From contig CBDBGT010000010.1 of NCBI GenBank assembly GCA_965205365.1, positions 328,048 through 392,047 on the forward strand: a stretch of DNA of 64,000 nt. The letters are read 5' to 3'. A program made the translations under genes and the position numbers. Shown piece by piece: positions 3,541 to 50,239 of the stretch; position 1 is the stretch's first letter; each line of letters starts with the position of its first letter. Source of the DNA: Bdellovibrionales bacterium (GTDB lineage Bacteria > Bdellovibrionota > Bdellovibrionia > Bdellovibrionales > UBA1609). The notes under the pieces were generated by a model. That model made no database searches. It was not told the DNA's origin and worked only from the letters and a program-made list of their open reading frames with translations.

Positions 3541-3754
3541 ATTTAGTTTTTATTAATGTTTTATAAGACTGTTTTAAAAAGAGAATAAACTTAAAATTGT
3601 CTTCATCTAAGACAAAGAGCAACAGAGTGCAACACTTTAAAAACCTGAAACCTTTGTTATTTTGAGTTGAGAAATTTTTAAGACTTTTGTCCTAAAGTTA
3701 ACTAAGTTTTAATCGATATGTGAATTAGAACCAAAAAAAACAAAGGAGAATAAA
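3541..3754 (+). promoter_or_regulatory. conserved upstream cassette U1 of the lipoprotein family (putative promoter and 5' leader)
   Basis: Near-identical ~215-bp block is also found at 6384-6599, 7728-7880+9364-9434, 16609-16818 and 17979-18193. It contains the palindrome TTGTCTT-catct-AAGACAA (3597-3615), direct repeats GCAACA-N4-GCAACA, AAACCT-G-AAACCT and TTGAG-TTGAG, and the RBS GGAGAATAAAATG. Confidence 0.6.
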
Positions 3755-4380
3755 ATGAATATGAAATCAAAATCTATATTACCAGTATGTTTATTATTTA
3801 GTTTTACAGCTTGTCAGAATGTTGAACACTCCTTTGAAGAAAAACGTACATCAACAAGTGAGTTAGATCGATCAGACCCTCAAGGGGGGGGGGGGAGGCA
3901 GATAGCCTCTTAGATAACCTTACAGGTCAATCAGTTGACCTTCCAAATGATGGTTGGTACGAAGCTGCCTGTATAAGACTGCCTAACGAATATATTCATA
4001 ACAACATTAGATACAACAGTGTAAAACATTTTTTTAACATGAATACTGACTATTTATACCCCGATAACAATTATATTTTTCATACTGGGCGTTTCACAAC
4101 ATCAAATGATTGCACTGGGGACTATAGTTACTCTGAGTCGTATAGAAATACCAGATACCGTAACGTCAATAGAGATTTTGGTAACAATACCTCTTATGTG
4201 ATATATGGTGATAATACTGACGCCCTGGCATTTCATATTGATGATGAGGGTGCCCTTTATATAAATCATCCTATAAAAATATTCACCCCCACTTCTTTAA
4301 ATACTAATTCCATTGTAGAAGATGTTTTTGCTGATTTTATCAATGATCCAACAAGTGGGGTTAAATATACGCGCCTTTAA
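3755..4380 (+). CDS. phase-variable lipoprotein family, copy A; OFF as sequenced (frameshift at the G12-A-GG tract)
   Basis: ATG at 3755; MNMKSKSILPVCLLFSFTAC lipobox. The upstream frame stops shortly after the tract (..QGGGGRQIAS*). The +1 frame is open from 3898 (ADSLLDNLTGQSVDLPNDGWYE...) through track ORF 4039-4380, which ends with the family motif VEDVFADFINDPTSGVKY. Confidence 0.75.
3884..3895 (+). repeat. poly-G tract G12 (followed by A GG), copy A
   Basis: Counted directly from the sequence. There are 15 nt between CAA (Gln) and CAGATAG. The family is in frame only when this length is 1 mod 3. Confidence 0.9.
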
Positions 4381-4487
4381 AGCTATCTTTTCGGTTTTAA
4401 ACTAGTTTGCCGCAATTTATAATACAACAACTTAAAAAAAAATTTATTAAATCAGTTAGAACTAAAAACAAGAAGAAGGAGAATAAA

Positions 4488-5189
4488 ATGAATATAAAAT
4501 CAAAATCTATATTACCAATATGTTTATTATTTAGTTTTACAGCTTGTCAGAATGTTGAACACCCTCTTGAAGAAAAACGTACATCAACAAGTGAGTTAGA
4601 TCAATCAGACACTTTATTAGATGATTCAAATGACTCAGAAAGATCAAACCCTCAAGGCAAAGGCAACCAAGATGACCTTACCAGTGAGTCAATTCTTAGC
4701 CTTCCAAGTGGTTACTATAAAACAGACTGTATAATAATAGGCACAGCCCATAGTATGAAAATTTCTTTAGAAATTAGGACAACAAGCTTTCCAGACAATA
4801 TAGATCGAACATACACTTTTTATACAGGAACTTCATGTAATACTGCTCTACACACTGCATTTATTACACTACTTCCTATCGATGATAAGCCAAACCTTGG
4901 CAATAATACCTCTTATTTTACTTCCATTCCCCCTTCTTACGTTACTGTACCTCAAATTCAAGCCTATCCATTTCATATTGATGATGATGGCGCCCTTTAT
5001 ATAGGTTATAATTCATCCCGCCCATCTCTTCTTGATCCTATTCTTGAATATTTCGGCAGAGATTTGGGAGATAGCACTGGTTATGGTGGCGGTGGTTTCA
5101 TTTTAAACTCTAGCTCTATTGTAGAAGATGTTTTTGCTGATTTTATCAATAACCCAACAAGTGGATTTAAATATATACCTATACTTTAA
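4488..5189 (+). CDS. lipoprotein family copy B, no tract, continuously in frame
   Basis: Internal Met28 of track ORF 4407-5189 follows GGAGAATAAAATG, giving MNIKSKSILPICLLFSFTAC. It reads ...SNPQGKGNQDDL where the paralogs have poly-G. Family motifs LGNNTSY, FHIDDDGALYI and VEDVFADFINNPTSGFKY are present. Confidence 0.8.
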   Translation: MNIKSKSILPICLLFSFTACQNVEHPLEEKRTSTSELDQSDTLLDDSNDSERSNPQGKGNQDDLTSESILSLPSGYYKTDCIIIGTAHSMKISLEIRTTSFPDNIDRTYTFYTGTSCNTALHTAFITLLPIDDKPNLGNNTSYFTSIPPSYVTVPQIQAYPFHIDDDGALYIGYNSSRPSLLDPILEYFGRDLGDSTGYGGGGFILNSSSIVEDVFADFINNPTSGFKYIPIL

Positions 5190-5235
5190 GTTTTCATTGA
5201 TATGTAAATTAGAACCAAAAAAAAAGGAGAATAAA

Positions 5236-6097
5236 ATGAAATCAAAATCTATACTACCAATATGTTTATTATTTAGTTTTACAGCTTGTCAGAATGTTGA
5301 ACACTCTTCTCAAGGGAAACGTACATTAACAAGTTTAGATAAGTCAGACACTTTATTAGGTGATTCAAGTGGATCAGACAGATCAAACCCTCAAGGGGGG
5401 GGGGGGGGGGGCAGATAGTCTCCTAGGTGACTCCTCAAATACATTAAACCCTCAAAGCCAAGACAGCTTAGATCAATCAACTCTTAGCCTTCCAAGTGGT
5501 TACTATAGAACTCGCTGTATAATAGTAAGCGCAACCCATAGTATGAAAAGTTTTTTAGAAATTAGGACCATAAGATATCCGGATAGTATAGAATTCAATT
5601 ACACTTTTTATGAGGGAACTTCATGTGATACTCCTAGACATGTGTTCATGTTTCCAAGAGTTATTACCGATAATAAGCCAAACTTTGGCAATAACACCTC
5701 CTATTTTACTATTCCACGTTATTCTTCCGATTATGATAATAGAAACTATCTTGGTAATAATCACGCTGAGGGCGCTTTCCCATTTCATATTGATGACAAT
5801 GGTACCCTTTATATAGGTCATACTTCATACGACCCATCTAGTATGTCTCGTGTAGATCGTGATGGAATATATTATGTGCGCTTAGATTTTGGATCTGGTG
5901 GCACCAGCCATGGTGGTTTCATTTTAGGCTCTAACTCTATTGTAGAAGATGTTTTTTCTGATTTTATCAATGACCCAACAAGTGGATTTAAATATATACC
6001 TGTACCTTCAGAACTCACAGTTAATGCACATTTACTAACTGATCCATTTTTAAATGACCCTCACGGTGACCGTAACCCACAATGGCGAATAAGGTAA
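5236..6097 (+). CDS. phase-variable lipoprotein family, copy C; OFF (G17)
   Basis: ATG at 5236 (MKSKSILPICLLFSFTAC). The upstream frame ends ..SNPQGGGGGGR* (track ORF 5128-5418). The downstream body is track ORF 5360-6097, which is in another frame and starts GGGGADSLLGDSS. Confidence 0.75.
5395..5411 (+). repeat. poly-G tract G17, copy C
   Basis: Counted directly and consistent with the track translation (5 GGG + GGC). G16 or G19 is needed for ON. Confidence 0.9.
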
Positions 6098-6124
6098 AAC
6101 ATCACAATTAAAATTGATAAAAAT

Positions 6125-6156
6125 AAGCCCTTTACCTTAAAGGGCTTATTTCTTTT
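6125..6156 (+). terminator. rho-independent terminator after copy C
   Basis: AAGCCCTTT-acctt-AAAGGGCTT perfect 9-bp stem followed by a T-rich run (ATTTCTTTT). The same hairpin recurs after copies D, E and F. Confidence 0.7.
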
Positions 6157-6383
6157 AAACTCGTTTGCTGCAATTTATAATACAACAACTTAAAAAAAAA
6201 TTTATCAAACCAGTAATATAAAACTAGTTTTTTAATTTTTAGATTAGAAAAAGGTCTTAATAAATTATTGCAATAGCTTCTTATAAAAAAAGTTACCTCT
6301 CTAAGTCTCTTTTTTTACTTTTAAGGTCTATTCATAAAAATTCATACAAAACCAACATCAAAAAGAGCGCGTTAAAAATAATA

Positions 6384-6599
6384 AATTTAGTTTTTTTTAA
6401 TGTTTTATAAAGCTGTTTTAAAAAGAGAATAAACTTAAAATTGTCTTCATCTAAGACAAAGAGCAACAGAGTGCAACACTTTAAAAACCTGAAACCTTTG
6501 TTATTTTGAGTTGAGAAATTTTTAAGACTTTTGTCCTAAAGTTAACTAAGTTTTAATCGATATGTAAGTTGTAACCAAAAAAAAACAAAGGAGAATAAA
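6384..6599 (+). promoter_or_regulatory. upstream cassette U2 (copy D)
   Basis: Near-identical to U1, U4 and U5. Confidence 0.6.
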
Positions 6600-7378
6600 A
6601 TGAATATGAAATCAAAATCTATATTACCAGTATGTTTATTATTTAGTTTTACAGCTTGTCAGAATGTTGAACACTCTTCTCAAGGGAAACGTACATTAAC
6701 AAGTTTAGATAAGTCAGACACTTTATTAGGTGATTCAAGTGGATCAGACAGATCAAACCCTCAAGGGGGGGGGGGGGGGGGGGGGGGGCAGATAGTCTCC
6801 TAGGTGACTCCTCAAATATATCAAATGGATCAAACTCTCAAGGCGGAGATAACCAAGATGACCTTACAAGTCAATCAGTTGACCTTCCAAATGGTTGGTA
6901 CGAAACTGCCTGTATAAGGCTTTCTGATAACTACCAGAATAGCAAAAGTGTAAAGTATGTTCTTTCCATAAATACTGATTACCAGTCCTTATCTCTCCGG
7001 CCTACCAATAGCCCCTTTTTAGCTCGTAAAGCTTGGTTTTTCTTAGAATCTGATTGCACTGGACAATATAGTGTTCGAGCATATACATCTTCTGGATACC
7101 ATAACGTCAATACAGATTTTGGCAATAATACCTCCTATGTTACATATGGTGGTAATACTGACTCCTTGTTGGCATTTCATATTGATAACGATGGCGCTCT
7201 TTATATAAATCAGTCTATAGATCTCGGTATGGATCCTACTTCTTTAAATAATAATTCCACTGTAGAAGATCTTTTTTCTGATTTTATCAATGATCCAACA
7301 ATTGGAATTAGATATACACGCACATCTTCAAAGCTGATTTTCAGCACTAGCCGCAATGAGTGGTTTTGGCCAAATTAA
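6600..7378 (+). CDS. phase-variable lipoprotein family, copy D; OFF (G24)
   Basis: Track ORF 6600-6803 ends ..SNPQGGGGGGGGQIVS*. The frame beginning GCA at 6788 (ADSLLGDSSNISNGSNSQGGDNQDDL...) is open through track ORF 7166-7378, as I verified by translation. Confidence 0.75.
6765..6788 (+). repeat. poly-G tract G24, copy D
   Basis: Counted directly (8 Gly codons in the track ORF). G25 or G22 is needed for ON. Confidence 0.9.
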
Positions 7379-7407
7379 ATTATTTATAGATCCTGTTTAA
7401 AAAAAGT

Positions 7408-7436
7408 AAGCCCTTTACCTTAAAGAGCTTACTTTT
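7408..7436 (+). terminator. rho-independent terminator after copy D
   Basis: AAGCCCTTT-acctt-AAAGAGCTT (one mismatch) followed by ACTTTT. Confidence 0.55.
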
Positions 7437-7473
7437 ATCAATTTAAATTGTGATATTTTAAAAAAGCTTTATT

Positions 7474-7501
7474 AAACCAGTTAAGATAAACTGGTTTTTT
7501 T
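7474..7501 (+). terminator. second hairpin terminator in the inter-unit spacer
   Basis: AAACCAGTT-aagataa-AACTGGTTT followed by T7. The same element is at 17691-17719. Confidence 0.5.
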
Positions 7502-7727
7502 AAATTTTTAAAACTCTAGGCTCCTGCAAAGGTTTCTTTAAAAAAATTACCCCTAAATCCACTAAAACCTCTTAAGTCACACCACAGAAGTTTATTATTC
7601 ACAGTCATGGTGTTCTAATTGTATATTGCTAAAATAACTGAGTTAAAAAAAGGAGTTAAAAGATCCTAAGGTCTTTTTATAAAAATTTATATAAAACCAA
7701 CATCAAAAAGAGCGCGTTAAAAATAAT

Positions 7728-7880
7728 AAATTTAGTTTTTTTAATGTTTTATAAGACTGTTTTAAAAAGAGAATAAACTTAAAATTGTCTTCATCTAAGA
7801 CAAAGAGCAACAGAGTGCAACACTTTAAAAACCTGAAACCTTTGTTATTTTGAGTTGAGAAATTTTTAAGACTTTTGTCC
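7728..7880 (+). promoter_or_regulatory. upstream cassette U3, 5' part (separated from copy E by the ISL3 insertion)
   Basis: Identical to U2/U4 up to ...AGACTTTTGTCC, where the IS inverted repeat begins. The remainder of the cassette resumes at 9364. Confidence 0.6.
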
Positions 7881-9363
7881 GCCTCTCCGTTATCTAGAAG
7901 GGTGTAGTTTGTGCCAATCTCATTTGAGGTGGCCAGTACCAACTTGAAGTATTGATGTAATTTGAGTTTAAAAGTCCACATCGCTGCAGTATTTTGTGCA
8001 TAAATGACTCTGGGTTTGTGTAACCATAGCCCATCCTTCTAAGCACTTTAATCTTGTTGTTTAAGCCTTCACTTACTGCTGTTGTGAGCCCAGACATAAT
8101 ATATCCTTCAATGTAACCTCTGTACTTTCTTAAGGTTTTTGCAAATTTCAAAAAGGGCTTTAATTTTGACTCTCTTGCATATCGGTACCAAAGAACCAGA
8201 GCTTTTCTAAAGTCTTTTACATTCTTTTGATCTAAAACTTTATGGAAGTGCTCAACTAAAACTGAAGCTTTAAAAATGTTCTTATTCACATCTAAAAGCC
8301 TCTCTAATTTAGTAAAATCTCCTTTAGATAAATTCTTCTCACGCTCCACTAAAATATATCTTTTATGAGGTGCTAGCACATCCATTAAAAACTTATCTTC
8401 ATTTTCTTTAGCTTTTTTAAACTCAAATTTTCTCACATCATCAAAAAAATTATTTAGCCCTTCTGCAACATGGAACCTATCAACACAGACCTTAGCATTC
8501 TCACATTTACCTATCACAGCCTCAATAAAAGCATCATGCATATCAACTGCAAAAAACTTGATCTTATCTAGCTGCTCTTTTGTTAATACCTTTAAACAAT
8601 TAAGTAAGCTTGAACCCTTTCTGCCCATTGCATTTGAGAGCACCTTTCTCATCTTCGTACAGACTAAATTTGTGATGAACTTAATCGTATTCTTGTCACA
8701 AGACTTCTTTCCAAAAATAGTTCTAAAGTGCACCTCATCAGATGACATCTGCTCTAAATCTAACTTTCTTTCAGCATAGCTTAAAAGAGGTTTTATTTGC
8801 TTCATCCGGTACTGATCCAAATTCCACACAGTCTTGGGGTTCATTCTTAAAATTCTAGCAACTGACTCACAAGTCATCTCTTCACAAAGACGTCCTGCTT
8901 TTTCTACAAGTGAGTAAGTTAAGTTTTCAAAATTAGGGTGAGTAAAATCAACACCAGCTGATCTGACTTTATCATCACACATTAAGCAGTGCCCTCGAAG
9001 CTGTTTTAAGTAAATCCACACCTCTTCATATGAGCCTATTGGAGAAGCTTTAATTTTTCGAAGCTTCCACTCATGGACATGAGATATTTGGCAGCCACAT
9101 TGATTACAGCCTACATTTTCACGATCTTGTTTTGCGTAAAGGACTAGTTTTAACTCTTTATCACAAGCCTCCCAGTTTTCTAATTTTACACCTTGAAGAC
9201 CTAGTGATTTTACGATTAACTTTTCAAATAGCTCCATTTAATCCTCCGACAATTTAGTTTATTTAGTAACCAAATTTTAATTGTGTGGAGGGAGCTTGTT
9301 TATCTTTTTCAGGACTTTAGGCTTGTTGGCATGGATCACACCCTTCTAGATAACGGTGAACCC
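7881..9363 (-). mobile_element. ISL3-family insertion sequence, copy 1 (1483 bp)
   Basis: Imperfect terminal IRs GCCTCTCCGTTATCTAGAAGGGTGT / GGGTTCACCGTTATCTAGAAGGGTGT. An 8-bp direct duplication TTTTGTCC is at 7873-7880 and 9364-9371. It has the same length as the copy at 13095-14577 and encodes an identical protein. Confidence 0.9.
7894..9237 (-). CDS. ISL3-family transposase
   Basis: 447 aa with an N-terminal Cys-rich zinc-finger-like region (CNQCGC...HCLMCDD). The overall layout fits ISL3 transposases and the element gives an 8-bp TSD. Confidence 0.8.
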   Translation of the reverse strand: MELFEKLIVKSLGLQGVKLENWEACDKELKLVLYAKQDRENVGCNQCGCQISHVHEWKLRKIKASPIGSYEEVWIYLKQLRGHCLMCDDKVRSAGVDFTHPNFENLTYSLVEKAGRLCEEMTCESVARILRMNPKTVWNLDQYRMKQIKPLLSYAERKLDLEQMSSDEVHFRTIFGKKSCDKNTIKFITNLVCTKMRKVLSNAMGRKGSSLLNCLKVLTKEQLDKIKFFAVDMHDAFIEAVIGKCENAKVCVDRFHVAEGLNNFFDDVRKFEFKKAKENEDKFLMDVLAPHKRYILVEREKNLSKGDFTKLERLLDVNKNIFKASVLVEHFHKVLDQKNVKDFRKALVLWYRYARESKLKPFLKFAKTLRKYRGYIEGYIMSGLTTAVSEGLNNKIKVLRRMGYGYTNPESFMHKILQRCGLLNSNYINTSSWYWPPQMRLAQTTPF

Positions 9364-9434
9364 TTTTGTCCTAAAGTTAACTAAGTTTTAATCGATATGT
9401 AAGTTGTAACCAAAAAAAAACAAAGGAGAATAAA

Positions 9435-10248
9435 ATGAATATGAAATCAAAATCTATATTACCAGTATGTTTATTATTTAGTTTTACAGCTTGTCAGAAT
9501 GTTGAACACTCTTCTCAAGGGAAACGTACATTAACAAGTTTAGATAAGTCAGACACTTTATTAGGTGATTCAAGTGGATCAGACAGATCAAACCCTCAAG
9601 GGGGGGGGGGCAGATAGTCTCCTAGGTGACTCCTCAAATATATCAAATGGATCAAACACTCCAGACGGAGACAATCAAGGTGACCTTATAGGTCAACCAA
9701 ATCTTGATCTTCCAACTGGTTGGTACGAAAGTGACTGCCTAAGAACGTCTAACGGATCTACTCTTAACAACTGGGGGCTCAGCAGTGTAAAGTATATTCT
9801 TGCTATAAATACTACTAGCTCTCAGCAGCCCCTTATCCAGTTGAGGTTCCCCCACTATATAAGTCTTCTAGCTCTGTCTTATAAAAAACCTGGTTGCAAC
9901 GACGGGCCTGGCCGTTATAGTGGTACACGACACCAAACCACATCATACCTTAACGTCAATAAAAATGTTGGTAACAATACCTCTTATTTTATAATTAGTG
10001 ATCCATACGGTACAGCTAATGATTCAACTTCCGCCCTTGCATTTCATATCGATAATGATGGCGCTCTTTATATAAATCACCTTGCGGACTTTTTTCTCTT
10101 CGATGAAGAAAATGAAAGGCGCCCTGCAATAAATACTACTAATTTCACCTTAGAAAATGAGGGTGTTTTTTCTGATTTTATCAATGACCCAACAATTGGA
10201 GTTAGATATTATCCATCTCCTACAGTTGGTTTTTCATCACACTACTAG
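9435..10248 (+). CDS. phase-variable lipoprotein family, copy E; OFF (G11), upstream cassette disrupted by ISL3
   Basis: Track ORF 9435-9617 ends ..SNPQGGGGR*. The body is track ORF 9565-10248 in another frame (GGGADSLLGDSSNISNGSNTPDGDNQGDL...). Confidence 0.75.
9600..9610 (+). repeat. poly-G tract G11, copy E
   Basis: Counted directly. G10 or G13 is needed for ON. Confidence 0.9.
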
Positions 10249-10299
10249 AAGAAATGAATGGGTTTGGCCAAATCGTTGGGTAAAGCTTTTTTTAAAAAA

Positions 10300-10330
10300 C
10301 AAGCCCTTTACCTTAAGGGGCTTGTTTCTT
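10300..10330 (+). terminator. rho-independent terminator after copy E
   Basis: CAAGCCC-tttaccttaag-GGGCTTG hairpin followed by TTTCTTTT. Confidence 0.6.
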
Positions 10331-10362
10331 TTAAGCTAGTTTACCACAATTTATACTAGAAC

Positions 10363-10640
10363 AATGTTGTTGCACATGATTACTCAACCTAAACCAAAAA
10401 CTTGAAAATCTTTACCCACCCATCCTAAAATAAGTTCAACCAAACATACAAAGGATGGTTAAGGGTAAAAGGCTTAAACAGATTAATTGAAAAAGCTACA
10501 ACAAGGAACTCATAGGGCGTAGTTCCACCGCTTTTCACTTTCCTAAAAACTTAAAACACTCCTGGCTTGAACAGACTACAAGGCCAGGGTTTCAAAAAAT
10601 TTATTCTGATTCTGCGCCCCTAGCCTTAAATATCTAATGT
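10363..10640 (+). pseudogene. IS5-family element, left end with decayed transposase N-terminus
   Basis: The terminal sequence GTTGTTGCACATGA is the inverted complement of TCATGTGCAACAAC at 16592-16605. A short interrupted reading frame follows (MVKGKRLKQIN*...). Confidence 0.4.
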
Positions 10641-10669
10641 TGCCGGCTAGAATGCTTCCAGAAGCCTTT

Positions 10670-10945
10670 TATACTTAGCCGTAGTAATTGATTTATTTAA
10701 CCGTGAAGTTGTTGGTTGGAGTAGAGGTAAAAGCTTAGATATATTGAAAGCTGGTTTTCAAGTTTAAAAAAAAGAATTTTTATATAGAAAAAACTATACT
10801 GGAGAAAGAGAATTAAGATGGTTAGTATTTGAATATATTGAGGTTTGGTATAACAAGAAAAGAAGACATTCTTCTCTTGATGATCAAGCCCTAAAGGGTA
10901 TGCAATTAAACACAACCTCCCATAGAAAAAAGTGTCCTATTTCTT
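10670..10945 (+). pseudogene. IS3-family orfB (DDE integrase) C-terminal fragments plus right end
   Basis: My own translation gives YLAVVIDLFNREVVGWS... and ...FEYIEVWYNKKRRHSSLDDQ, interrupted by stops. Both are IS3-family integrase signature regions. Confidence 0.55.
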
Positions 10946-11497
10946 TGGAGAAGTCCAATCTGAGAAATCAAATTCACGTTTAAGGTTATCACTTTCTCCA
11001 ACTATTCTCCATTCTCTTTCGTTTCTCCATTTCATGTTTTCAGTGATGTGAACAATCTCATGGAGTCTTTTTCGGGGAAAGTCCTTGCTTAGTTTGTCGA
11101 TTTTTAAGTGCATAGGCATTTTACTAATAGTTTCACCTAAGTGATTAACATTACCATCTTGAACATATACAACATTTTGACCTTTGTTTTTAATAACCCA
11201 GTCAATATCAAAACCAATGCCAAACTTTCCAAAATCTCTAATGTGGTCAGTTGCAAAACCCAAAAGTGTTTCAGTGAAACAAGTAATGTAAGGAGAGAAG
11301 GAAACTCCTGTTACTTTCTTCCCCCTAGAATCTGAATAGCCCACTCAACACTATTCTTGTTGAGTAGGAGCATTGAACTACTTATAATGATTTTTAATAT
11401 TTCAAAGGCCTGATCTTCAGCTTTGCCATCAATGCCTTAAAAACCTGTAAAGTGATATAATGTATTTGAAACAGTTTCATTTGCCATTTTTACCTTG
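10937..11497 (-). pseudogene. decayed Abi-like / DUF2971-like gene
   Basis: Track ORF 10937-11344 carries the ...NEREWRIV motif. The upstream reading starts MANETVSNTLYHFTGF* (ATG at 11497) and is cut by a stop and a frame change before joining the 135-aa ORF. Confidence 0.45.
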
Positions 11498-11502
11498 TCT
11501 GT

Positions 11503-11814
11503 TTATGCAACTTCACCTTTGACTGATTCAACACTCATTTTAATCTTTAAGTGAAATGCTTTCTGTAGATATTTGTCAATTGATTCAGTAGAAAACTTTT
11601 TTCTTTTCTTTACGAAATCTGACACATATTGAATTGATATTTCTGCTTTATCAGCAAAAGATTGTAGTCCCATTGCAATAATAGTTTCTCGCAAAGCTTC
11701 ATCAACACTCATCTCCTCATCGTTGATAAGTGTCATTATATACGCTTGAGAAAATTCGACATTTTCAAATTTAGTTGCGATTAATTCGTTAAAGTCTTTA
11801 TGTCTATTTGCCAT
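11503..11814 (-). CDS. HigA-like antitoxin (addiction module antidote protein, HTH)
   Basis: 103 aa. It overlaps the upstream toxin gene by 11 nt. The toxin-first order and the FSQAYIMTLINDEE...ALRETIIAMGLQSFADKAEISIQYVSDF region fit the HigA/antidote family. Confidence 0.7.
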   Translation of the reverse strand: MANRHKDFNELIATKFENVEFSQAYIMTLINDEEMSVDEALRETIIAMGLQSFADKAEISIQYVSDFVKKRKKFSTESIDKYLQKAFHLKIKMSVESVKGEVA

Positions 11815-12124
11815 AATTCCTCCAAAGCTCCTTAGCTTTATCTATGTCACGACTTTGAGTTTTCTTATCTCCACCAACAAGGAGAATAATGAATTCATTC
11901 CCATCTTCGGCAAAATACACTCTGTACCCTGGGCCGTGTGTTATTTTAATCTCAAAAACACCATCTTTTAGCACTTTTATGGACTTCTTTGCTCCGCCCT
12001 TTGCTACTCTTTGGATAAACCTAAAGACAATCGCTTGTGCTACATTGTCTAATTTATTCATCCAATCTTCAAAAGGTGAGTTTCCATTCTCTGTTACAAA
12101 ATACTTAATCTTTTTAATAATCAC
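11804..12124 (-). CDS. RelE/ParE-superfamily toxin (HigB-like addiction module killer protein)
   Basis: 106 aa: ...FEDWMNKLDNVAQAIVFRFIQRVAKGG...GVFEIKITHGPGYRVYFAEDGNEFIILLVGGDKKTQSRDIDKAKELW, a typical killer-protein layout. Confidence 0.7.
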   Translation of the reverse strand: MIIKKIKYFVTENGNSPFEDWMNKLDNVAQAIVFRFIQRVAKGGAKKSIKVLKDGVFEIKITHGPGYRVYFAEDGNEFIILLVGGDKKTQSRDIDKAKELWRNYGK

Positions 12125-12140
12125 TCCATGAGTCCTTATT

Positions 12141-12164
12141 AAACTACACTAATCGAAGTAGTTT
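12141..12164 (-). promoter_or_regulatory. possible operator palindrome upstream of the TA pair
   Basis: AAACTAC-N10-GTAGTTT, 17-40 nt upstream of the toxin start. Confidence 0.3.
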
Positions 12165-12382
12165 GTCAAGCTGTACTACTAAGTACTTATAATCAAAGAG
12201 GAAATGACTAGAATACTAAGAAGCCCATAAATACAGGTAAAACATTGATTTTATTATTTTTTTTTATAGGTAACCCGAGTTCGAACTTTTTTCAGGACCT
12301 AAGTGCTGGATAAATAAAAGATCATCTTAAGCCTTTTGTAAGATTTAGTTGTTTTTTACTGATCTGCAAAAAGGAGCCGGGA

Positions 12383-13094
12383 ATGATCGAAGAAAATCAA
12401 ATTATAGAAGTTTTTACTCTTGTTGACGACTTTATTTTAGGGTTAAACAAAGAACAGTCCAAACTCATACCCAGCAAAAGAAAGAGAGGTTTTCCATCTG
12501 CGTTATCTGAGTCTGAAGTCATCACCATCTGTTTATTATTCCAATTTTCCGGCTTCAGAAATTTTAAAACTTTCTATACAGGTTATGTTCAAAAATTTCT
12601 AAAACCTTATTTCCCAAAGCTCTTCTCCTACAATAGGTTTGTAGAACTTAAAAAATCTTCAGCACCTCAAATTCTTATTTTTTTACACTCACTTATGCAA
12701 TCAAATATTTGCACAGGAATATCTGTTGTAGACTCCAGTCCCATTGTTGTTTGTAATAACAAAAGAATCGGTCGTCACAAAACCTTTAAAGGACTTTGAA
12801 AACGTGGGAAATCAACAATGGGCTGGTTCTCTTTGGTTTTAAAGTTCACATAGTCATTTCTCACAAAGGGGAGCTCTTAAGTTTTACCATAACCCCAGGA
12901 AATGTTCATGATACAAAGCCTGTAGAGGGTTTAGCTGAGAATATTTTTGGAAAATTGTTTGGAGACAAAGGATATATATCCCAAAAGCTATTTGAAAAAT
13001 TGATGAGTAAAGGGGTTTAAGTCATAACAAATCTTAAATCCAATATGAAAAATAAGTTTGTTCCTCTTTTTGATAAACTACTCCTGAGGAAAAG
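12383..13094 (+). pseudogene. IS982-family transposase, disrupted (5' two thirds)
   Basis: Track ORFs 12383-12799 and 12796-13020 together match the intact 295-aa protein of copies 2 and 3. The remainder resumes at 14586-14763 after the ISL3. Confidence 0.85.
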
Positions 13095-14577
13095 GGGTTC
13101 ACCGTTATCTAGAAGGGTGTGATCCATGCCAACAAGCCTAAAGTCCTGAAAAAGATAAACAAGCTCCCTCCACACAATTAAAATTTGGTTACTAAATAAA
13201 CTAAATTGTCGGAGGATTAAATGGAGCTATTTGAAAAGTTAATCGTAAAATCACTAGGTCTTCAAGGTGTAAAATTAGAAAACTGGGAGGCTTGTGATAA
13301 AGAGTTAAAACTAGTCCTTTACGCAAAACAAGATCGTGAAAATGTAGGCTGTAATCAATGTGGCTGCCAAATATCTCATGTCCATGAGTGGAAGCTTCGA
13401 AAAATTAAAGCTTCTCCAATAGGCTCATATGAAGAGGTGTGGATTTACTTAAAACAGCTTCGAGGGCACTGCTTAATGTGTGATGATAAAGTCAGATCAG
13501 CTGGTGTTGATTTTACTCACCCTAATTTTGAAAACTTAACTTACTCACTTGTAGAAAAAGCAGGACGTCTTTGTGAAGAGATGACTTGTGAGTCAGTTGC
13601 TAGAATTTTAAGAATGAACCCCAAGACTGTGTGGAATTTGGATCAGTACCGGATGAAGCAAATAAAACCTCTTTTAAGCTATGCTGAAAGAAAGTTAGAT
13701 TTAGAGCAGATGTCATCTGATGAGGTGCACTTTAGAACTATTTTTGGAAAGAAGTCTTGTGACAAGAATACGATTAAGTTCATCACAAATTTAGTCTGTA
13801 CGAAGATGAGAAAGGTGCTCTCAAATGCAATGGGCAGAAAGGGTTCAAGCTTACTTAATTGTTTAAAGGTATTAACAAAAGAGCAGCTAGATAAGATCAA
13901 GTTTTTTGCAGTTGATATGCATGATGCTTTTATTGAGGCTGTGATAGGTAAATGTGAGAATGCTAAGGTCTGTGTTGATAGGTTCCATGTTGCAGAAGGG
14001 CTAAATAATTTTTTTGATGATGTGAGAAAATTTGAGTTTAAAAAAGCTAAAGAAAATGAAGATAAGTTTTTAATGGATGTGCTAGCACCTCATAAAAGAT
14101 ATATTTTAGTGGAGCGTGAGAAGAATTTATCTAAAGGAGATTTTACTAAATTAGAGAGGCTTTTAGATGTGAATAAGAACATTTTTAAAGCTTCAGTTTT
14201 AGTTGAGCACTTCCATAAAGTTTTAGATCAAAAGAATGTAAAAGACTTTAGAAAAGCTCTGGTTCTTTGGTACCGATATGCAAGAGAGTCAAAATTAAAG
14301 CCCTTTTTGAAATTTGCAAAAACCTTAAGAAAGTACAGAGGTTACATTGAAGGATATATTATGTCTGGGCTCACAACAGCAGTAAGTGAAGGCTTAAACA
14401 ACAAGATTAAAGTGCTTAGAAGGATGGGCTATGGTTACACAAACCCAGAGTCATTTATGCACAAAATACTGCAGCGATGTGGACTTTTAAACTCAAATTA
14501 CATCAATACTTCAAGTTGGTACTGGCCACCTCAAATGAGATTGGCACAAACTACACCCTTCTAGATAACGGAGAGGC
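13095..14577 (+). mobile_element. ISL3-family insertion sequence, copy 2 (1483 bp), nested in IS982
   Basis: Same IRs as copy 1. The 8-bp duplication AGGAAAAG is at 13087-13094 and 14578-14585. Removing the IS and one duplicate restores the IS982 sequence CTCCTGAGGAAAAGGTACATT seen in intact copies. Confidence 0.9.
13221..14564 (+). CDS. ISL3-family transposase (identical to 7894-9237)
   Basis: The 447-aa translation is identical in the ORF track. Confidence 0.8.
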   Translation: MELFEKLIVKSLGLQGVKLENWEACDKELKLVLYAKQDRENVGCNQCGCQISHVHEWKLRKIKASPIGSYEEVWIYLKQLRGHCLMCDDKVRSAGVDFTHPNFENLTYSLVEKAGRLCEEMTCESVARILRMNPKTVWNLDQYRMKQIKPLLSYAERKLDLEQMSSDEVHFRTIFGKKSCDKNTIKFITNLVCTKMRKVLSNAMGRKGSSLLNCLKVLTKEQLDKIKFFAVDMHDAFIEAVIGKCENAKVCVDRFHVAEGLNNFFDDVRKFEFKKAKENEDKFLMDVLAPHKRYILVEREKNLSKGDFTKLERLLDVNKNIFKASVLVEHFHKVLDQKNVKDFRKALVLWYRYARESKLKPFLKFAKTLRKYRGYIEGYIMSGLTTAVSEGLNNKIKVLRRMGYGYTNPESFMHKILQRCGLLNSNYINTSSWYWPPQMRLAQTTPF

Positions 14578-14787
14578 AGGAAAAGGTACATTGTTGAAAC
14601 TGCTTTTGGGATTTTAAAGGAGGAATTTCATCTTGAACACTCAAGACACCGAAGCCCAAAAAACTTTGTGGTAAATTTACTTTCGGCACTAACGGCGTAC
14701 TGTTTGCGTCCAAGAAAACCCTCTATTAGACTTCAAGTACTTGAAGAAAGGCTGCTTCAGTAGGTTTAGAAAGTCCGAACTCGGGTT

Positions 14788-14893
14788 AGGTAGTGACTAT
14801 ACATCTGTTTGCCAATTTAAGAGCTTCTTCTTTAAATTCTTCTGAAAAAATATTGTACTTTTTTCTAGACTCTGTAGTCTCTTTCTTCTTCAT
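14788..14893 (-). pseudogene. IS3-family orfA N-terminal fragment
   Basis: My own translation gives MKKKETTESRKKYNIFSEEFKEEALKLANRC..., the IS3/IS911 orfA HTH pattern. It is truncated at the IS982 end. Confidence 0.45.
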
Positions 14894-15313
14894 GGTTTTT
14901 TACCTCTTCTTTTAGGTTTAGCTCCCACTTAGAAAAGTGTCCAGTATTTTTAGGGAAATCTAAAATTAATTGTCCACTAGCTTACAAATTCTTGTAAAGA
15001 AAAAAAATGAGTCACTACATTTTAGGTTTTAAGTCTTTTAACTTTGTCTGGCCATTATATTTGAACTCAACTGGGATTTTTTTAAAGGGGTGTCAAAGTC
15101 AGGAGAAAATGTAAACTATGTGTCAGGAAGGATATAGGCATGAGACATAAAACTCTCCAAGAGTTTTAAACTTGGGTTTTAGACTCTGTGTATAATATCA
15201 GTTACTAAAGTCTAAATTCAGGTTGAATATTAAAAAACTATTTTTTTTAATTCATACGGGTAGATAGAGTATGAGCATTGAGTTTATACGATATAAAATA
15301 AAGGGATATTCAT

Positions 15314-16051
15314 ATGAATAAAATCATTTAATTACTGTTGGTTACAACTACCGTATTGAGTTTAGCTGCTTGTGGATCTAGTAATTCTGATTCTAATCCA
15401 GATCCATGTCTTGGTTCTTCCCTCTTGCCGGGTGCTGTGTGTGAGGGTGGAGGAATTTATCTTGGAAGCCTTAGCCCTGGCGCCACTGATGGTAGTGGAA
15501 CAGATCACTATATCATCACCCCTGGGGGCTGTGAGGACATTCCATTAGGAAGTGTTTCAGGAGGTTCGGGGACAAATTCTTATGCATTAGATGATTTTAC
15601 AGTGACTTGTTCTGGTACGGATAGCTTACGTAAAGATTGGAATAATGATTCGACGAATTACTACGATATTCCAGGATTACAAAACTACACATCAACTTCT
15701 GGAACTGGTCATGGTGAAATTAATAAAGATTCAAATTACGGTTTAGCTAATACAGATGTAATTGTTGCCATCACTTCATCGTCTGAAGGGGGTTTTCACG
15801 CAGCAGCAAGGTACTGTCATAAGCTTGTTTATGGTGGTTATGATGATTGGCATTTACCTAATCGTTATGAGCTTAATTTAATGTACACAAATCACTCTGC
15901 TATTCCAGGTTTAGATCAAAGTGGTAATTACTATTGGTCTTCTACGGAGATCAACAATCATAGTGCGTGGGCCCAGCGCCTCTTAGATGGCCATCAGGGT
16001 AGTGACGGTAAGTTCAACTACAGCTTGGTTCGTTGTGTGCGGTGGTTTTGA
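15314..16051 (+). pseudogene. DUF1566 (Lcl C-terminal domain)-type lipoprotein with an in-frame TAA at codon 6
   Basis: ATG at 15314 gives MNKII*LLLVTTTVLSLAAC. The track ORF starts at TTG 15338 in the same frame. The C-terminus has WHLPNRYELNLMY...YYWSSTE...AW, typical of DUF1566. Confidence 0.55.
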
Positions 16052-16189
16052 GGCTTAAAAGGGCTCATGAGCTTTTTAGCCCTTTAGTTCTTTTATCTTA
16101 AGGAGGTTTTAAGCCTCCTTAAGATAAAGTATTCAATTTTAGAGACTCGCTTTTTGAGTAAATTAAAAACTATTTACTCAGCCATATTT

Positions 16190-16608
16190 TGTTAAAGGTT
16201 TAGAGAGTGAAGTTTCACACGTCAGTGCTCATGGAGCTTATGATGATTCAAAGATTTATGATAAGTGTGAAGAGTTAGGGATAAATCCGTTAATACCTCT
16301 AAAGAAAAATTCAAAGTTAAAACAACATGGCAACAGTAAAGCTAAGCCTATAAAGGGAGGTGAGGTTTTAAGAAATATAAAAAAATTAGGAAGGAAGTAA
16401 TGGAGATTAGAATCTGGTTACTTAAAAAGATCAATCTTAGAGAAAGCTATATATCGTTTTAAGGGTATTTTTAGAGGAGCTTTAAGTTTTAGGGAGTTTA
16501 AGAGTCAGTTTAATAAAGCTGCCATTAAATGTAAGATTTTAAATAAATTTTTATGCCCATCTGTAAAATTTAAATCACAGAAACAGTGGCTTCATGTGCA
16601 ACAACGCC
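16190..16608 (+). pseudogene. IS5-family transposase C-terminal fragment plus right end
   Basis: My own translation gives ...SAHGAYDDSKIYDKCEELGINPLIPLKKN... and ...GYLKRSILEKAIYRFKGIF...ILNKF, with internal stops. It ends in TCATGTGCAACAAC, the inverted repeat of 10365-10378. Confidence 0.5.
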
Positions 16609-16818
16609 GTTTTTTTTAATATTTTATAAGACTGTTTTAAAAAGAGAATAAACTTAAAATTGTCTTCATCTAAGACAAAGAGCAACAGAGTGCAACACTT
16701 TAAAAACCTGAAACCTTTGTTATTTTGAGTTGAGAAATTTTTAAGACTTTTGTCCTAAAGTTAACTAAGTTTTAATCGATATGTAAGTTGTAACCAAAAA
16801 AAAACAAAGGAGAATAAA
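16609..16818 (+). promoter_or_regulatory. upstream cassette U4 (copy F), 5' edge truncated by the IS5 end
   Basis: Near-identical to U1, U2 and U5. Confidence 0.6.
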
Positions 16819-17577
16819 ATGAATATGAAATCAAAATCTATATTACCAGTATGTTTATTATTTAGTTTTACAGCTTGTCAGAATGTTGAACACTCTTCTC
16901 AAGGGAAACGTACATTAACAAGTTTAGATAAGTCAGACACTTTATTAGGTGATTCAAGTGGATCAGACAGATCAAACCCTCAAGGGGGGGGGGGGGGGGG
17001 GGCAGATAGTCTCCTAGGTAACTCCTCAAATATATTAAATGGATCAAACTCTCAAGGCGGAAATAATCAAGATGACCTTACAGGTCAACCAAATCTTGAT
17101 CTTCCAACTGGTTGGTACGAAGGAAGGTGCCTAATAACACCTCAAGGTAGCAGTCTAAAACATAATTTAGGTATCGGCACTCTAGACTCAAAGAATATCA
17201 TTCATCGCACAGATTTCTACTCAGGAACTTCATGTGCAGATTACCCTACCGCTCCTCAATGGCCATATGTGATGCGTATTCGCGGTAACACCTTTAACGT
17301 TGCTGAATACGGCTTTGGTAATAATACTTCCTATTATACTCTATATAATGGTACAGAGGTGTTTCCGTTTCATGTTGATGATGATGGCACACTTTATATA
17401 ACCTATGCAGATACCCTAGAATCTGGTTTTCCTGTGGACCGCATTAACTATTTAAGGGGTTCTTCTATTGTGTTTAACGCTCCAACAAATCTAACTAGAG
17501 TGTATACACCTGTACCTTCACATTTAACCGCGAGGTTCAGAGAAAAAATGGTAAGCGGCGATCATCAAGTATGGTGA
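16819..17577 (+). CDS. phase-variable lipoprotein family, copy F; ON (G19 in frame)
   Basis: Single 252-aa track ORF: lipobox, ..SNPQGGGGGGADSLLGNSS.., FGNNTSY, FHVDDDGTLYI. Confidence 0.85.
   Translation: MNMKSKSILPVCLLFSFTACQNVEHSSQGKRTLTSLDKSDTLLGDSSGSDRSNPQGGGGGGADSLLGNSSNILNGSNSQGGNNQDDLTGQPNLDLPTGWYEGRCLITPQGSSLKHNLGIGTLDSKNIIHRTDFYSGTSCADYPTAPQWPYVMRIRGNTFNVAEYGFGNNTSYYTLYNGTEVFPFHVDDDGTLYITYADTLESGFPVDRINYLRGSSIVFNAPTNLTRVYTPVPSHLTARFREKMVSGDHQVW
16984..17002 (+). repeat. poly-G tract G19, copy F
   Basis: Counted directly. 19 is 1 mod 3, which is the in-frame state. Confidence 0.9.
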
Positions 17578-17592
17578 TCCCCGCTTTTAAAG

Positions 17593-17620
17593 TAAGCCCT
17601 TTATCTTAAAAGGGCTTATA
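17593..17620 (+). terminator. rho-independent terminator after copy F
   Basis: TAAGCCCTTT-atctta-AAAGGGCTTA hairpin. Confidence 0.55.
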
Positions 17621-17978
17621 ATTATAGATTTAAAAATTGACATTTTACTTAGTTAACAACTTATAAACAAAAACTTAAGGAAGCTTTATTAAACCAGTTC
17701 AGATAAACTGGTTTTTTTTAATTTTTAAATTAGAAAAAAATTTTAAAAAATTATTTTTAAAACCCTAGGCTCCTGCAAAGATTTCTTTTAAAAAATTACC
17801 CCCTAAATCCACTAAAACCTCTTAAGTCACACCACAGAAGTGTATTATTCACAGCCATGGTGTTCTAATTGTGTGTTGCTAAAATAACTTGTGATCTTTT
17901 AACTCCTTTTTTTTACCTCTAAGGTTTTTATAAAAATTCATATAAAACCAACATCAAAAAGAGCGCGTTAAAAATAAT

Positions 17979-18193
17979 AAATTTAGTTTTTTTTAATGTT
18001 TTATAAAGCTGTTTTAAAAAGAGAATAAACTTAAAATTGTATTGATCTAAGACAAAGAGCAACAGAGTGCAACACTTTAAAAACCTGAAACCTTTATTAT
18101 TTTGAGTTGAGAATTTTTTAAGACTTTTGTCCTAAAGTTAATTAAGTTTTAATCGATATGTGAATTAGAACCAAAAAAACAAAGGAGAATAAA
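17979..18193 (+). promoter_or_regulatory. upstream cassette U5 (copy G), palindrome mutated
   Basis: Same block as U1-U4, but reads TTGTATTgatctAAGACAA where the others have TTGTCTTcatctAAGACAA. Confidence 0.6.
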
Positions 18194-18999
18194 ATGAATA
18201 TGAAATCAAAATCTATATTACCAATATGTTTATTATTTAGTTTTACAGCTTGTCAGAATGTTGAACACTCTTCTCAAGGGAAGCGTACATTAACAAGTTT
18301 AGATAAGTCAGACACTTTATTAGGTGATTCAAATGACTCAGAAAGATCAAACCCTCAAGGGGGGGGGGGGGGGGGGGGGCAGATAGCCTCTTAGGTGACT
18401 CAAGCGGATCAAACACATCAAACCCTCAAAACGAAGACAACCAAGGTGACCTTACCAGTGAGTCAACCATTGATCTTCCAACCGGTTGGTATAAAACTGG
18501 CTGTATAAGACTGCCCAACGAATATATTTTTAACAACCTTAGGTACAACAGTGTAAAGTATTTTCTTGCCATAGATACTGATGACTTTCATTACTCCATG
18601 TATCCCAACAGTCCTTATAATTATTTTACTCACAGCGCTCTATATTTCCAAGAAACTAATTGTACTGGACGCTCTAATCCTAATTATGGGCAGGCTGGGG
18701 ACAGCCTTACACACAGCCCATACTATGACACCAATGATAACTTTGGTAACAATACCTCCTATTTTACAATTGGTCTTGGTTCAACTAGAGCCTTTGGATT
18801 TCATATTGATGATGATGGTGCCCTTTATATAGATCATGCTATTGCTACTGATGACATAGGTTCAGGTTTCCAAGAAAGTACTTCTTCTAATTTTATCAAT
18901 GACCCAACAAGTGGAGTTAGGTATACACGCACATCTTCAAAAGCAGTTTGGAGCACTACCCGCAACAAATGGGTATGGCCAGGTATCAATATGTTATGA
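18194..18999 (+). CDS. phase-variable lipoprotein family, copy G; OFF (G21)
   Basis: Track ORF 18194-18394 ends ..GGGGGGGQIAS*. The frame from GCA at 18379 (ADSLLGDSSGSNTSNPQNEDNQGDL...) is open into track ORF 18598-18999, as I verified by translation. Confidence 0.75.
18359..18379 (+). repeat. poly-G tract G21, copy G
   Basis: Counted directly. G22 or G19 is needed for ON. Confidence 0.9.
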
Positions 19000-46562: not shown

Positions 46563-46585
46563 GGGGGGGGGGGGGGGGGGGGGGG
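46563..46585 (-). repeat. homopolymer tract G23 on plus strand (C23 in the coding sense), unit 2
   Basis: Counted directly (8+10+5). Confidence 0.9.
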
Positions 46586-46679
46586 TGAATTGAGTTTTGA
46601 CCCTTAAAAACTTTCTTTTAAAAATCATAATCATGTTTTTACCCATATGAAGAGATGTTGTTACAAATAAAATTAACAT
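46586..46679 (-). CDS. X-derived leader ORF (start codon plus 31 codons) feeding into the C tract, unit 2
   Basis: ATG at 46679 gives MLILFVTTSLHMGKNMIMIFKRKFLRVKTQFT followed by poly-Pro. With C23 it terminates at a TAA 15 nt after the tract. Confidence 0.6.
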
Positions 46680-46697
46680 AGCGACTTAACCTTACTT

Positions 46698-49680: not shown

Positions 49681-49705
49681 GGGGGGGGGGGGGGGGGGGG
49701 GGGGG
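49681..49705 (-). repeat. homopolymer tract G25 on plus strand (C25 in the coding sense), unit 3
   Basis: Counted directly (10+10+5). Confidence 0.9.
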
Positions 49706-49799
49706 TGAATTGAGTTTTGACCCTTAAAAACTTTCTTTTAAAAATCATAATCATGTTTTTACCCATATGAAGAGATGTTGTTACAAATAAAATTAACAT
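49706..49799 (-). CDS. X-derived leader ORF feeding into the C tract, unit 3
   Basis: ATG at 49799; same leader sequence as unit 2. With C25 it terminates at a TGA shortly after the tract. Confidence 0.6.
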
Positions 49800-50239
49800 A
49801 GCGACTTAACCTTACTTAAGTAAAAAAATTTATTAATATTCTTGCTCAATTTAACTATAAATACAAATCCTATAAAATAAGGCTTTAGATTAAAAGTGCT
49901 GTAAAGTTTGGTTTAAGGGCGATTTAGTTTACTACAAAAGATGAATTGATTCCGTTTAAGACAAAAGCCTAGTGCTTCCCCCTCATTACTTTAAAACTTT
50001 TCCACTGTTAAACAGTTATCCTAAGGCTCCTCTTCCTGATTACACCAACTCTAAATTAAAAATCACTTTCTAATTTTTAATTTTCTTCTGTTTAGTTAAA
50101 TCTAGAAAAACCTCACTAAATTCACTTTTTACGCTCTCTAAATAAATTTCTATTGTCTTTAATGCCCAAGCCTGTTTTTGATCTCTTCTAGATTAACTCT
50201 TTGTTCAAATGTATGAATCCCCTATGGATGTCAATATTT

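Follow-up and report, generated by a model that had tools for sequence, protein, structure and literature searches.

Neisseria carries 11 phase-variable opa genes, each of which switches independently of the others, and lipoprotein families with combinatorial phase variation are known from Mycoplasma (both in PMC11868660). The cluster that we describe here invites comparison with both: seven paralogous lipoprotein genes (which we call A–G), six of them with a long run of G early in the coding sequence, in a 64-kb stretch (hereafter, the window; 34% guanine plus cytosine [GC]) of a contig from a Bdellovibrionales bacterium (CBDBGT010000010.1, positions 328,048 to 392,047). Two pilin-like genes in the same window carry long runs of C. 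A first reading of this DNA, made from its letters only (the sequence-only reading), had proposed that the G runs are slipped-strand switches that give combinatorial expression of a surface repertoire. In other words, are these genes broken, or are they switched, and what else might such runs be doing?

The opa genes offer a close likeness, being a multigene surface family of complete genes, each with an independent frame switch near the signal peptide and all of them combinatorial in effect. They differ in encoding beta-barrel outer-membrane proteins, in using a pentanucleotide within the signal peptide, and in belonging to a different phylum, whereas the products here are lipoproteins and the repeat is a homopolymer in the mature tether. 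The opa repeat is CTCTT, in the region coding for the leader peptide. In Campylobacter jejuni, poly-G/C tracts are mainly G9–G10, with a deletion bias at G11 and above (PMC8355987). That organism, too, has an AT-rich genome with intragenic G/C homopolymer frame switches in surface-related genes, but its tracts are shorter (here, they are 11–25 nucleotides [nt]) and lie mostly in single-copy genes for glycan-modifying enzymes rather than in paralogous lipoproteins.

The Mycoplasma Vlp, Vaa, and P78 systems share with ours lipoproteins that have a conserved 5′ region and signal peptide followed by divergent bodies. They are unlike it in that Vlp (M. hyorhinis) has its poly-A in the promoter and other families use site-specific inversion, the bodies are built of tandem repeats, the bacteria are wall-less Mollicutes, and the sequences are unrelated. 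In M. hominis Vaa and M. fermentans P78, the switch is a frameshift in a coding poly-A, the homopolymer mechanism that Theiss and Wise (1997, among the references of PMC2831843) are said to have treated. Neisseria supplies two further parallels, one for each family in the window: pilC (poly-G in the signal-peptide region) and hpuA (a lipoprotein gene with a coding poly-G), in which a 5′ coding poly-G switches a pilus-associated protein or a lipoprotein. These, however, are single genes with shorter tracts (~G9–G14) and unrelated proteins. In Chlamydia pneumoniae, the poly-G of pmp10 alters the frame within a large paralogous surface family, although there one or a few members have a tract and the proteins are autotransporters, not lipoproteins. 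We found no homology to Neisseria Opa or to Mycoplasma Vlp, Vsa, or Vpma (homologues are confined to 13 small clusters), the coding poly-G is a different switch from theirs (CTCTT repeats, promoter poly-A, or Xer- or Hin-type inversion), and the likeness is one of analogy. The kind of system is already known; its novelty lies in the protein family and the lineage, in the extreme length of the tracts, and in the parallel second family.

Tract-bearing genes and their reading frames

Scanned at a threshold of at least 10 consecutive G, with 100 dinucleotide-preserving shuffles as the null, the window holds 8 tracts of G11 or longer, and the shuffles hold none (80 matches to G10; six tracts are in the lipoprotein genes and two in the pilin-like genes). 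Poly-G and poly-C runs are generally underrepresented in prokaryotic genes (PMC2831843), so tracts of G17–G25 are unusual, as the sequence-only reading had judged them to be. Its seven genes are all there: six-frame motif searches and tblastn find exactly seven paralogues, every one on the + strand between 3755 and 18999, and in the window tblastn detects neither another copy nor a fragment of one, but the genome as a whole has more (below). It had placed a tract in every copy, just after the signal peptide. Six of the seven do have one, at a homologous site, but gene B has none, and the site lies ~35 codons past the lipobox Cys.

Every gene has an AAGGAG Shine–Dalgarno sequence 8 nt 5′ of its ATG and a signal peptide with the lipobox SFTAC (MNMKSKSILPVCLLFSFTAC). 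The consensus, MNMKSKS-ILPVCLLFSF-TAC, has on direct reading the charged n-region, the hydrophobic core, and the lipobox Cys of a lipoprotein, in what we take to be agreement with the PROSITE-type lipobox pattern. Although the shared signal peptide was correctly described for most copies, B begins MNIKSKS and C begins MKSKS; similarly, the ~35-residue linker ending in SNPQ is found in most copies, but that of A is shorter and ends in SDPQ. This linker belongs to a low-complexity tether in which a unit similar to D-x-LLGDSS..SNPQ occurs twice, and the junction of the two units is precisely where the G run is. Gene B reads SNPQ-GKG-NQDD, without the second linker repeat, and its DNA at the tract site is CAA-GGCAAAGGC-AAC; B seems to have arisen by a deletion between the two tether units that took out the tract.

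The arithmetic of the frames is simple. Between the ATG and the tract, every copy has a length of 0 mod 3, and the final G is the first base of the body codon GCA (..G-CAGATAG), so that the body can be read in frame only when the number of G (n) is 1 mod 3. Our recomputed frames agree with the earlier assignment, in which F (G19) is ON and A, C, D, E, and G are OFF. Each OFF copy terminates 2–5 codons past its tract, at the TAG of the conserved CAGATAG or CTC(C/T)TAG. Beyond the tract, each of the five OFF bodies is open for 161–228 codons up to a stop, whereas the other two frames of the same segments contain 6–32 stops, and a body this open arose in 0 of 20,000 shuffles per gene. The frames had been said to run open to the C terminus, and they do, with no stop or second frameshift downstream. 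Read in frame, a tract adds 3–8 glycines to the flexible linker; out of frame, it leaves a lipopeptide of ~40–47 amino acids (aa).

An internal GTG (MDQTDQTLKGGG...; at 9570–9600, at 5365–5395, and at equivalent positions) is the start chosen by the gene caller for the bodies of C and E and for a body on another contig (P0003). We considered it as the true start and rejected it: its place is within the tether but in a different frame, and its product would have no signal peptide. Because of these GTG starts, the public annotation shows two unrelated short proteins where there is one gene, and both the family and the switch are masked.

Upstream of the genes is a module of 210–280 nt, nearly identical in A, D, F, and G. 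Between A, B, and C there are only short spacers and no terminator, and the three genes therefore probably form a single transcription unit; terminator-like hairpins stand 3′ of C, D, E, and F. Just 5′ of the Shine–Dalgarno sequence is a poly-A of 7–9 nt (3733–3740, 5217–5225, 6577–6585, 9412–9420, 16796–16804, and ~18175), which is A8 in A, A9 in C, D, E, and F, and A7 in G; this run in the 5′ untranslated region could be a second, weaker variable element. The upstream module also has a palindrome, TTGTCTT-CATCT-AAGACAA, and three TAAGAC motifs (3580–3625, with equivalents upstream of D, F, and G). These are candidate regulator sites that, to judge from the motifs, may imply transcriptional control besides the frame switch.

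Tract lengths, bodies, and a second gated family

Do the tracts change in length? Evidence comes from comparing paralogues (not isolates) whose surroundings are the same. D and F are exactly identical for 352 nt upstream and 17 nt downstream of the tract, yet they have G24 and G19; D and E are exactly identical for 237 nt upstream and 47 nt downstream, yet they have G24 and G11. Among these three genes, tract length is the sole difference over 284–369 nt, and it follows that tract length changes much faster than the flanking bases. The tract codons are, moreover, all GGG, a codon that makes up 22% of Gly codons in housekeeping open reading frames (ORFs) and only 6% in the lipoprotein bodies; pure GGG in proteins that otherwise seldom use it indicates that the homopolymer is maintained at the level of DNA. 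Runs of A/T of 8–10 nt within long ORFs leave their frames unbroken, which shows that the consensus is sound at ordinary homopolymers, although the exact lengths of G11 and longer are still uncertain on any platform.

The two parts of each gene have had different histories. From the ATG to the tract, copies are 89–100% identical (synonymous divergence [dS], 0–0.2), whereas the bodies are 50–75% identical, with dS of 0.34–1.2 and a ratio of nonsynonymous to synonymous divergence (dN/dS) of 0.44–0.90. The contrast tells us that the 5′ module is homogenized, presumably by gene conversion, and that the bodies are constrained.

What are the bodies? They have two invariant cysteines and the motifs LP.G.Y, FGNNTSY, FH.D..G.LYI, and F..FIN.PT. 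Of the conserved motifs first described, VEDVF.DFI is missing in F. The protein family was unfamiliar to the sequence-only reading, and so it is to the databases: neither the lipoproteins nor their remote homologues match Pfam or NCBIfam, a profile search of the PDB gives no sequence match at E up to 1, hidden Markov model (HMM) and structure searches bring no known relative, and PADLOC finds nothing for copy F, the sole member scanned. A first AlphaFold model from 8 sequences had a mean predicted local distance difference test score (pLDDT) of 53; with 16 sequences, the pLDDT was 64 and the predicted template modeling (TM) score was 0.61, and in this model the tether is disordered and the fold comprises seven strands plus a C-terminal helix. 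Foldseek against the PDB with the latter model returned nothing significant (best E = 0.064, TM < 0.3). Among the weak matches were NanoLuc, Blc, and ApoD, at TM 0.2–0.3 and E > 0.06, a faint likeness to NanoLuc and to lipocalins, whose calycin fold is an eight-stranded barrel plus a C-terminal helix. As modeled, the domain is a novel, predicted beta-rich fold of ~140 aa with two conserved cysteines, on a long Ser/Asp/Asn/Gly tether. The cysteine pair and the lipobox, as read from the sequence, argue for an exported, lipid-anchored domain.

A second, unrelated family in the window has the same design. In each of two pilin-like genes, a leader ORF starting MLILFVTTSLHMGKN.. enters the C tract, and directly beyond is the body frame, of 549 codons in gene 1 and 553 in the other. 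The bodies carry the prepilin cleavage/methylation motif GFSLIEVMVS (TIGR02532, 18 bits against a cut-off of 16.3; PF07963, 22.1 against 21.2), at an atypical position ~100 residues from the ATG. The earliest in-frame start codon past the C tract falls within that motif; with no start between tract and motif, the motif can be translated solely through the tract. There are 94 nt before the tract and the body offset is 2, so the body is in frame only at n = 0 mod 3. Both window copies are out of frame, whereas a third paralogue (P0158, 548 aa), on another contig, stays in frame across its tract and has six prolines there, from which the tract would be ~C21. That an unrelated family is built in this way strengthens the case for long G:C tracts as translational switches in this genome.

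All 8 tracts in the window are G on the + strand, regardless of gene direction (G on the coding strand of the lipoprotein genes and C on that of the pilin-like genes), and the GC skew of the + strand is negative across nearly the entire window. The uniformity may reflect a replication-strand preference, though only two independent gene families are involved.

The family also extends beyond the window. An exact look-up places F, at full length, in a public protein collection together with the truncated 5′ products of four other copies (C, D, E, and G); there, they cluster with three more products of 62–63 aa from a contig of 799,960 nt, evidently of the same assembly. Reconstructed from the protein sequences, these three copies imply G9, G9, and G14-AGAGGG, all OFF, and the same contig holds bodies P0003, P0018, P0019, and P0022. 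This brings the family to at least 10 members genome-wide, 9 of them with a tract, and 1 of those 9 is ON. Random phase would give so few ON (at most 1 of 9) with a nonsignificant binomial probability of 0.14.

Among 1.84 billion cluster representatives, searched exhaustively with an HMM, only the 13 clusters mentioned above matched. Outside this assembly, the homologues are lipoproteins of 160–170 aa (MKLKY..GFTAC; the lipobox region reads GFTAC or GFAGC) that keep the core motifs but have neither the long tether nor the G run. Two of them, P0021 and P0024, are tandem neighbors on one contig of ENA sample ERZ25069296, in a region whose 16.5 kb lack any G/C run as long as 6. The ClpB most similar to that of our genome (87% identity) comes from the same sample, at the same 7× coverage label. 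Among named ClpB relatives, the best is that of a Bdellovibrionales bacterium metagenome-assembled genome (MAG; 82%), followed by several Bdellovibrionaceae/Pseudobdellovibrionaceae MAGs at ~52–53%; a ClpB scan of genome contigs gave, among the matches listed, ~50% identity to many phyla. Together with the strong Shine–Dalgarno sequence, the 34% GC, and the abundance of IS copies, this tentatively suggests an AT-rich member of Bdellovibrionota, broadly defined. We infer that the ERZ25069296 contigs belong to one sister genome. If they do, then it was in the lineage considered here that the tether and the tract arose and the family expanded. In the survey of related genomes that the sequence-only reading had recommended, the putative sister genome shows short, tractless homologues, and the metagenome and genome-collection scans described below show no further copy of the cassette.

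Weighing the explanations

We think it likely that these genes are subject to slipped-strand translational phase variation, each gene independently, and that the result is a variable lipoprotein repertoire. Slipped-strand mispairing during replication would shift n, reversibly and at high frequency. Each gene would flip between ON and OFF on its own, and a clonal population would show varied combinations of lipoproteins. An OFF gene would yield the short lipopeptide only, an ON gene would carry the added tether glycines, and tractless B would be a constitutive member. Gene conversion would maintain near-identity in the module, from promoter through signal and tether to tract, and leave the bodies to diverge, and selection might come from phage, from a grazer, or from a host. 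All that slipped-strand phase variation predicts at the level of sequence is borne out, in support of what had first been proposed.

Several observations weigh against it. The tract lengths come from a single assembly, and assembled lengths of G11–G25 are unreliable, so single ON/OFF calls may be wrong. One ON copy in nine would fit tight selection for OFF, or decay. The tract had been called the only lesion, and as far as stop-free bodies go, it is; however, a copy of the insertion sequence (IS) ISL3 sits ~65 nt 5′ of the E ATG and splits the E upstream module, and F, the ON copy, is the one without VEDVF.DFI. (E does keep ~65–70 nt of its own upstream sequence adjacent, at 9364–9434.) Surface exposure and lipidation of the family are predicted from the signal peptide alone. 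Metagenome scans with protein patterns and with a 29-nt probe for the invariant signal peptide did not find the cassette elsewhere, and a family-profile scan of a genome collection gave no match, with patterns that would miss remote homologues (GNNFSY, GGNISY).

Might the cell simply read through? Under leaky decoding, slippage of RNA polymerase, of the ribosome, or of both would give mixed frames from every copy; each gene would be expressed to some degree regardless of its tract length in the DNA, and the tract would be an attenuator. We regard this as unlikely, although there is something to be said for it. The tracts, at 11–24, are well above the length of known A/T transcriptional slippage, a process that, according to work cited in PMC2831843, rescues frameshifted genes in Buchnera. 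Most copies are OFF in the DNA and yet fully conserved, and tRNA-Gly should be able to re-pair in any frame of poly-G. Leaky decoding nevertheless leaves the unequal lengths between identically flanked copies unexplained, and it is compatible with switching at the DNA level rather than exclusive of it. To our knowledge, slippage is also far less documented on G/C than on A/T runs.

It is quite improbable, in our view, that the tracts are real while their lengths are noise of sequencing or assembly, so that biology would account neither for the ON/OFF pattern nor, perhaps, for the variability. No platform is free of miscalls in homopolymers of 11 or more, related contigs are named like low-coverage (7×) long-read metagenome contigs, and the 5′ modules are identical over stretches of up to at least 350 nt, to which short reads are hard to assign. 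Against this, the tracts occupy homologous positions with conserved flanks in six window copies and in three elsewhere, A/T runs of 8–10 in long ORFs are not frameshifted, the assembly resolves identical 1.5-kb IS copies, and the range of 9–25 far exceeds typical calling error. Even with noisy lengths, the architecture implies frame-gating.

That the cluster is a decaying set of pseudogenes in an IS-ridden genome, with G runs as fragile sites, strikes us as very improbable. The window is indeed rich in IS (two ISL3, three IS982, and one IS1380), one immunoglobulin (Ig)-domain protein gene and the E upstream region are interrupted, and 8 of the 9 tract-bearing copies are OFF; but the OFF bodies have zero stops or second frameshifts, dN/dS is below 1, the lesion is always at one engineered-looking site, and an unrelated family has the same design.

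A recombinational cassette or a G-quadruplex mechanism in place of the frame switch is just as hard to credit. In this view, the 5′ module and G run would be a recombination or quadruplex site for gene conversion among the copies, or the quadruplex would be a roadblock that tunes transcription and translation. The 5′ module is indeed homogenized relative to the bodies, the bodies are mosaic, with segments in common (repeat families D6, D7, D9, D10, and D13), and ViennaRNA predicts a G-quadruplex of 2–5 layers for each tract, 6–50 kcal/mol more stable than folds without one, but each copy is a complete gene with its own upstream sequence, ribosome-binding site, ATG, and signal peptide rather than a silent cassette, no recombinase was seen among the locus ORFs scanned, the dependence on frame is exact, and the G-quadruplex prediction is purely thermodynamic. 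Going by that same thermodynamic prediction, quadruplexes may add a graded effect of tract length to that of frame.

Surroundings of the cluster and what a switch would mean

The coordinates of the genes, tracts, upstream modules, and other features are collected in Table 1. The two ISL3 copies there stand in inverted orientation, and an inversion between them could be imagined as a switch for E. This is ruled out: each copy retains matching 8-bp target duplications, so these are two simple insertions. Short contigs from several metagenomes (JGI 3300012270, JGI 3300012036, ENA, and Logan) carry a transposase that closely resembles that of ISL3 and shares its 90%-identity cluster, and a tblastn search of plasmids with the transposase reached only ~26% identity. 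The three IS982 copies are at 29656–30600, 46697–47640, and 50239–51180 (the third with a frameshifted transposase), and the IS1380 is at 43143–44525.

Table 1. Positions of features in the window; for genes A–G, the first coordinate is that of the ATG
Feature	Position	Strand	Remarks
Upstream module of A	3546..3754	+	A8 run and AAGGAG; from alignment, repeat family D1
Gene A	3755..4380	+	5′ ORF stops at 3913; body frame 3895–4380; OFF
Tract A	3884..3898	+	G12 (3884–3895) then AGG; interrupted run, 15 nt
Gene B	4488..5189	+	No tract; intact, 233 aa (P0001)
Gene C	5236..6097	+	OFF
Tract C	5395..5411	+	G17
Terminator-like hairpin after C	6119..6153	+	In conserved 3′ flank (repeat family D8) also found after A, D, E
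Upstream module of D	6322..6599	+	From alignment, repeat families
Gene D	6600..7378	+	OFF
Tract D	6765..6788	+	G24
Upstream module of E, distal part	7667..7880	+	Severed by IS; ends in target-site duplication TTTTGTCC
ISL3 copy 1	7881..9363	-	1,483 bp; transposase 7894–9237; 8-bp target duplication TTTTGTCC
Gene E	9435..10248	+	OFF
Tract E	9600..9610	+	G11
ISL3 copy 2	13095..14577	+	100% identical to copy 1, inverted; own duplication AGGAAAAG
Upstream module of F	16609..16818	+	From alignment, repeat families
Gene F	16819..17577	+	ON, 252 aa; most divergent copy
Tract F	16984..17002	+	G19
Upstream module of G	17918..18193	+	From alignment, repeat families
Gene G	18194..18999	+	OFF
Tract G	18359..18379	+	G21
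Pilin-like gene 1	44911..46679	-	ATG 46679; C23 (46585–46563); out of frame
Pilin-like gene 2	48017..49799	-	C25 (49705–49681); out of frame

Between the ISL3 copies, near E (10937–12124, − strand), are a truncated AbiGi-like ORF and an ORF for a Gp49/HigB-like toxin, the latter accompanied by a small partner; these are small defense or toxin-antitoxin genes inside the lipoprotein cluster. Between ISL3 copy 2 and F (15338–16051, + strand) is an ORF of 237 aa with an Lcl C-terminal domain (PF07603), putatively a surface or secreted protein. No recombinase gene was found among the ORFs scanned in 1–22 kb, and the window has no 16S gene, tRNA, or Rfam match. Farther along are eukaryote-like Ig-domain proteins (Ig_3/I-set, E down to 1e-73) at 23516–26581, 27383–29755, and 30751–31707. 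One large member has a reprolysin-type metalloprotease domain as well, and the gene at 27383–29755 is apparently broken by an IS982 copy and resumes at ~30676. Proteins of this eukaryote-like kind hint at interaction with a eukaryotic host.

How new is this to the group? Among the papers that our literature searches listed, none reports phase variation in Bdellovibrionota (for Silvanigrella, there was only one incidental co-mention), none was found for the sample accessions, and terms for phase variation, homopolymers, and lipoproteins had no match in the Spirobacillus genome paper. We know of phase variation as a subject studied almost entirely in host-adapted pathogens such as Neisseria, Haemophilus, Campylobacter, Helicobacter, and Mycoplasma. 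Here, a contingency system would be found in an uncultured, AT-rich bacterium, in a lipoprotein family that is essentially private to its lineage, and it would display a route by which a contingency locus can be built, through duplication of a gene, a tether that is disordered, and insertion of a homopolymer where two repeats of that tether meet.

A larger claim can be framed, namely that this genome has a phasome of ultralong G:C tracts (to 25 nt) gating at least two unrelated surface families, in a lineage probably related to Bdellovibrionota. We find this doubtful as a whole, but its consequences are worth stating. Such a phasome would imply an unusual regime of slippage and repair, such as an insertion bias or weak mismatch repair; alternatively, the tracts would act as G-quadruplex elements, with length tuning expression gradedly as well as by frame. 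The tracts, at up to 25 nt, would be two to three times what Campylobacter tolerates. Apart from that larger claim, the extreme tract lengths make a useful test of ideas on the limits of homopolymer length. And for the organism itself, the findings as a whole suggest strong and fluctuating selection directed at the surface, by phage, by grazers, or by a eukaryotic host.

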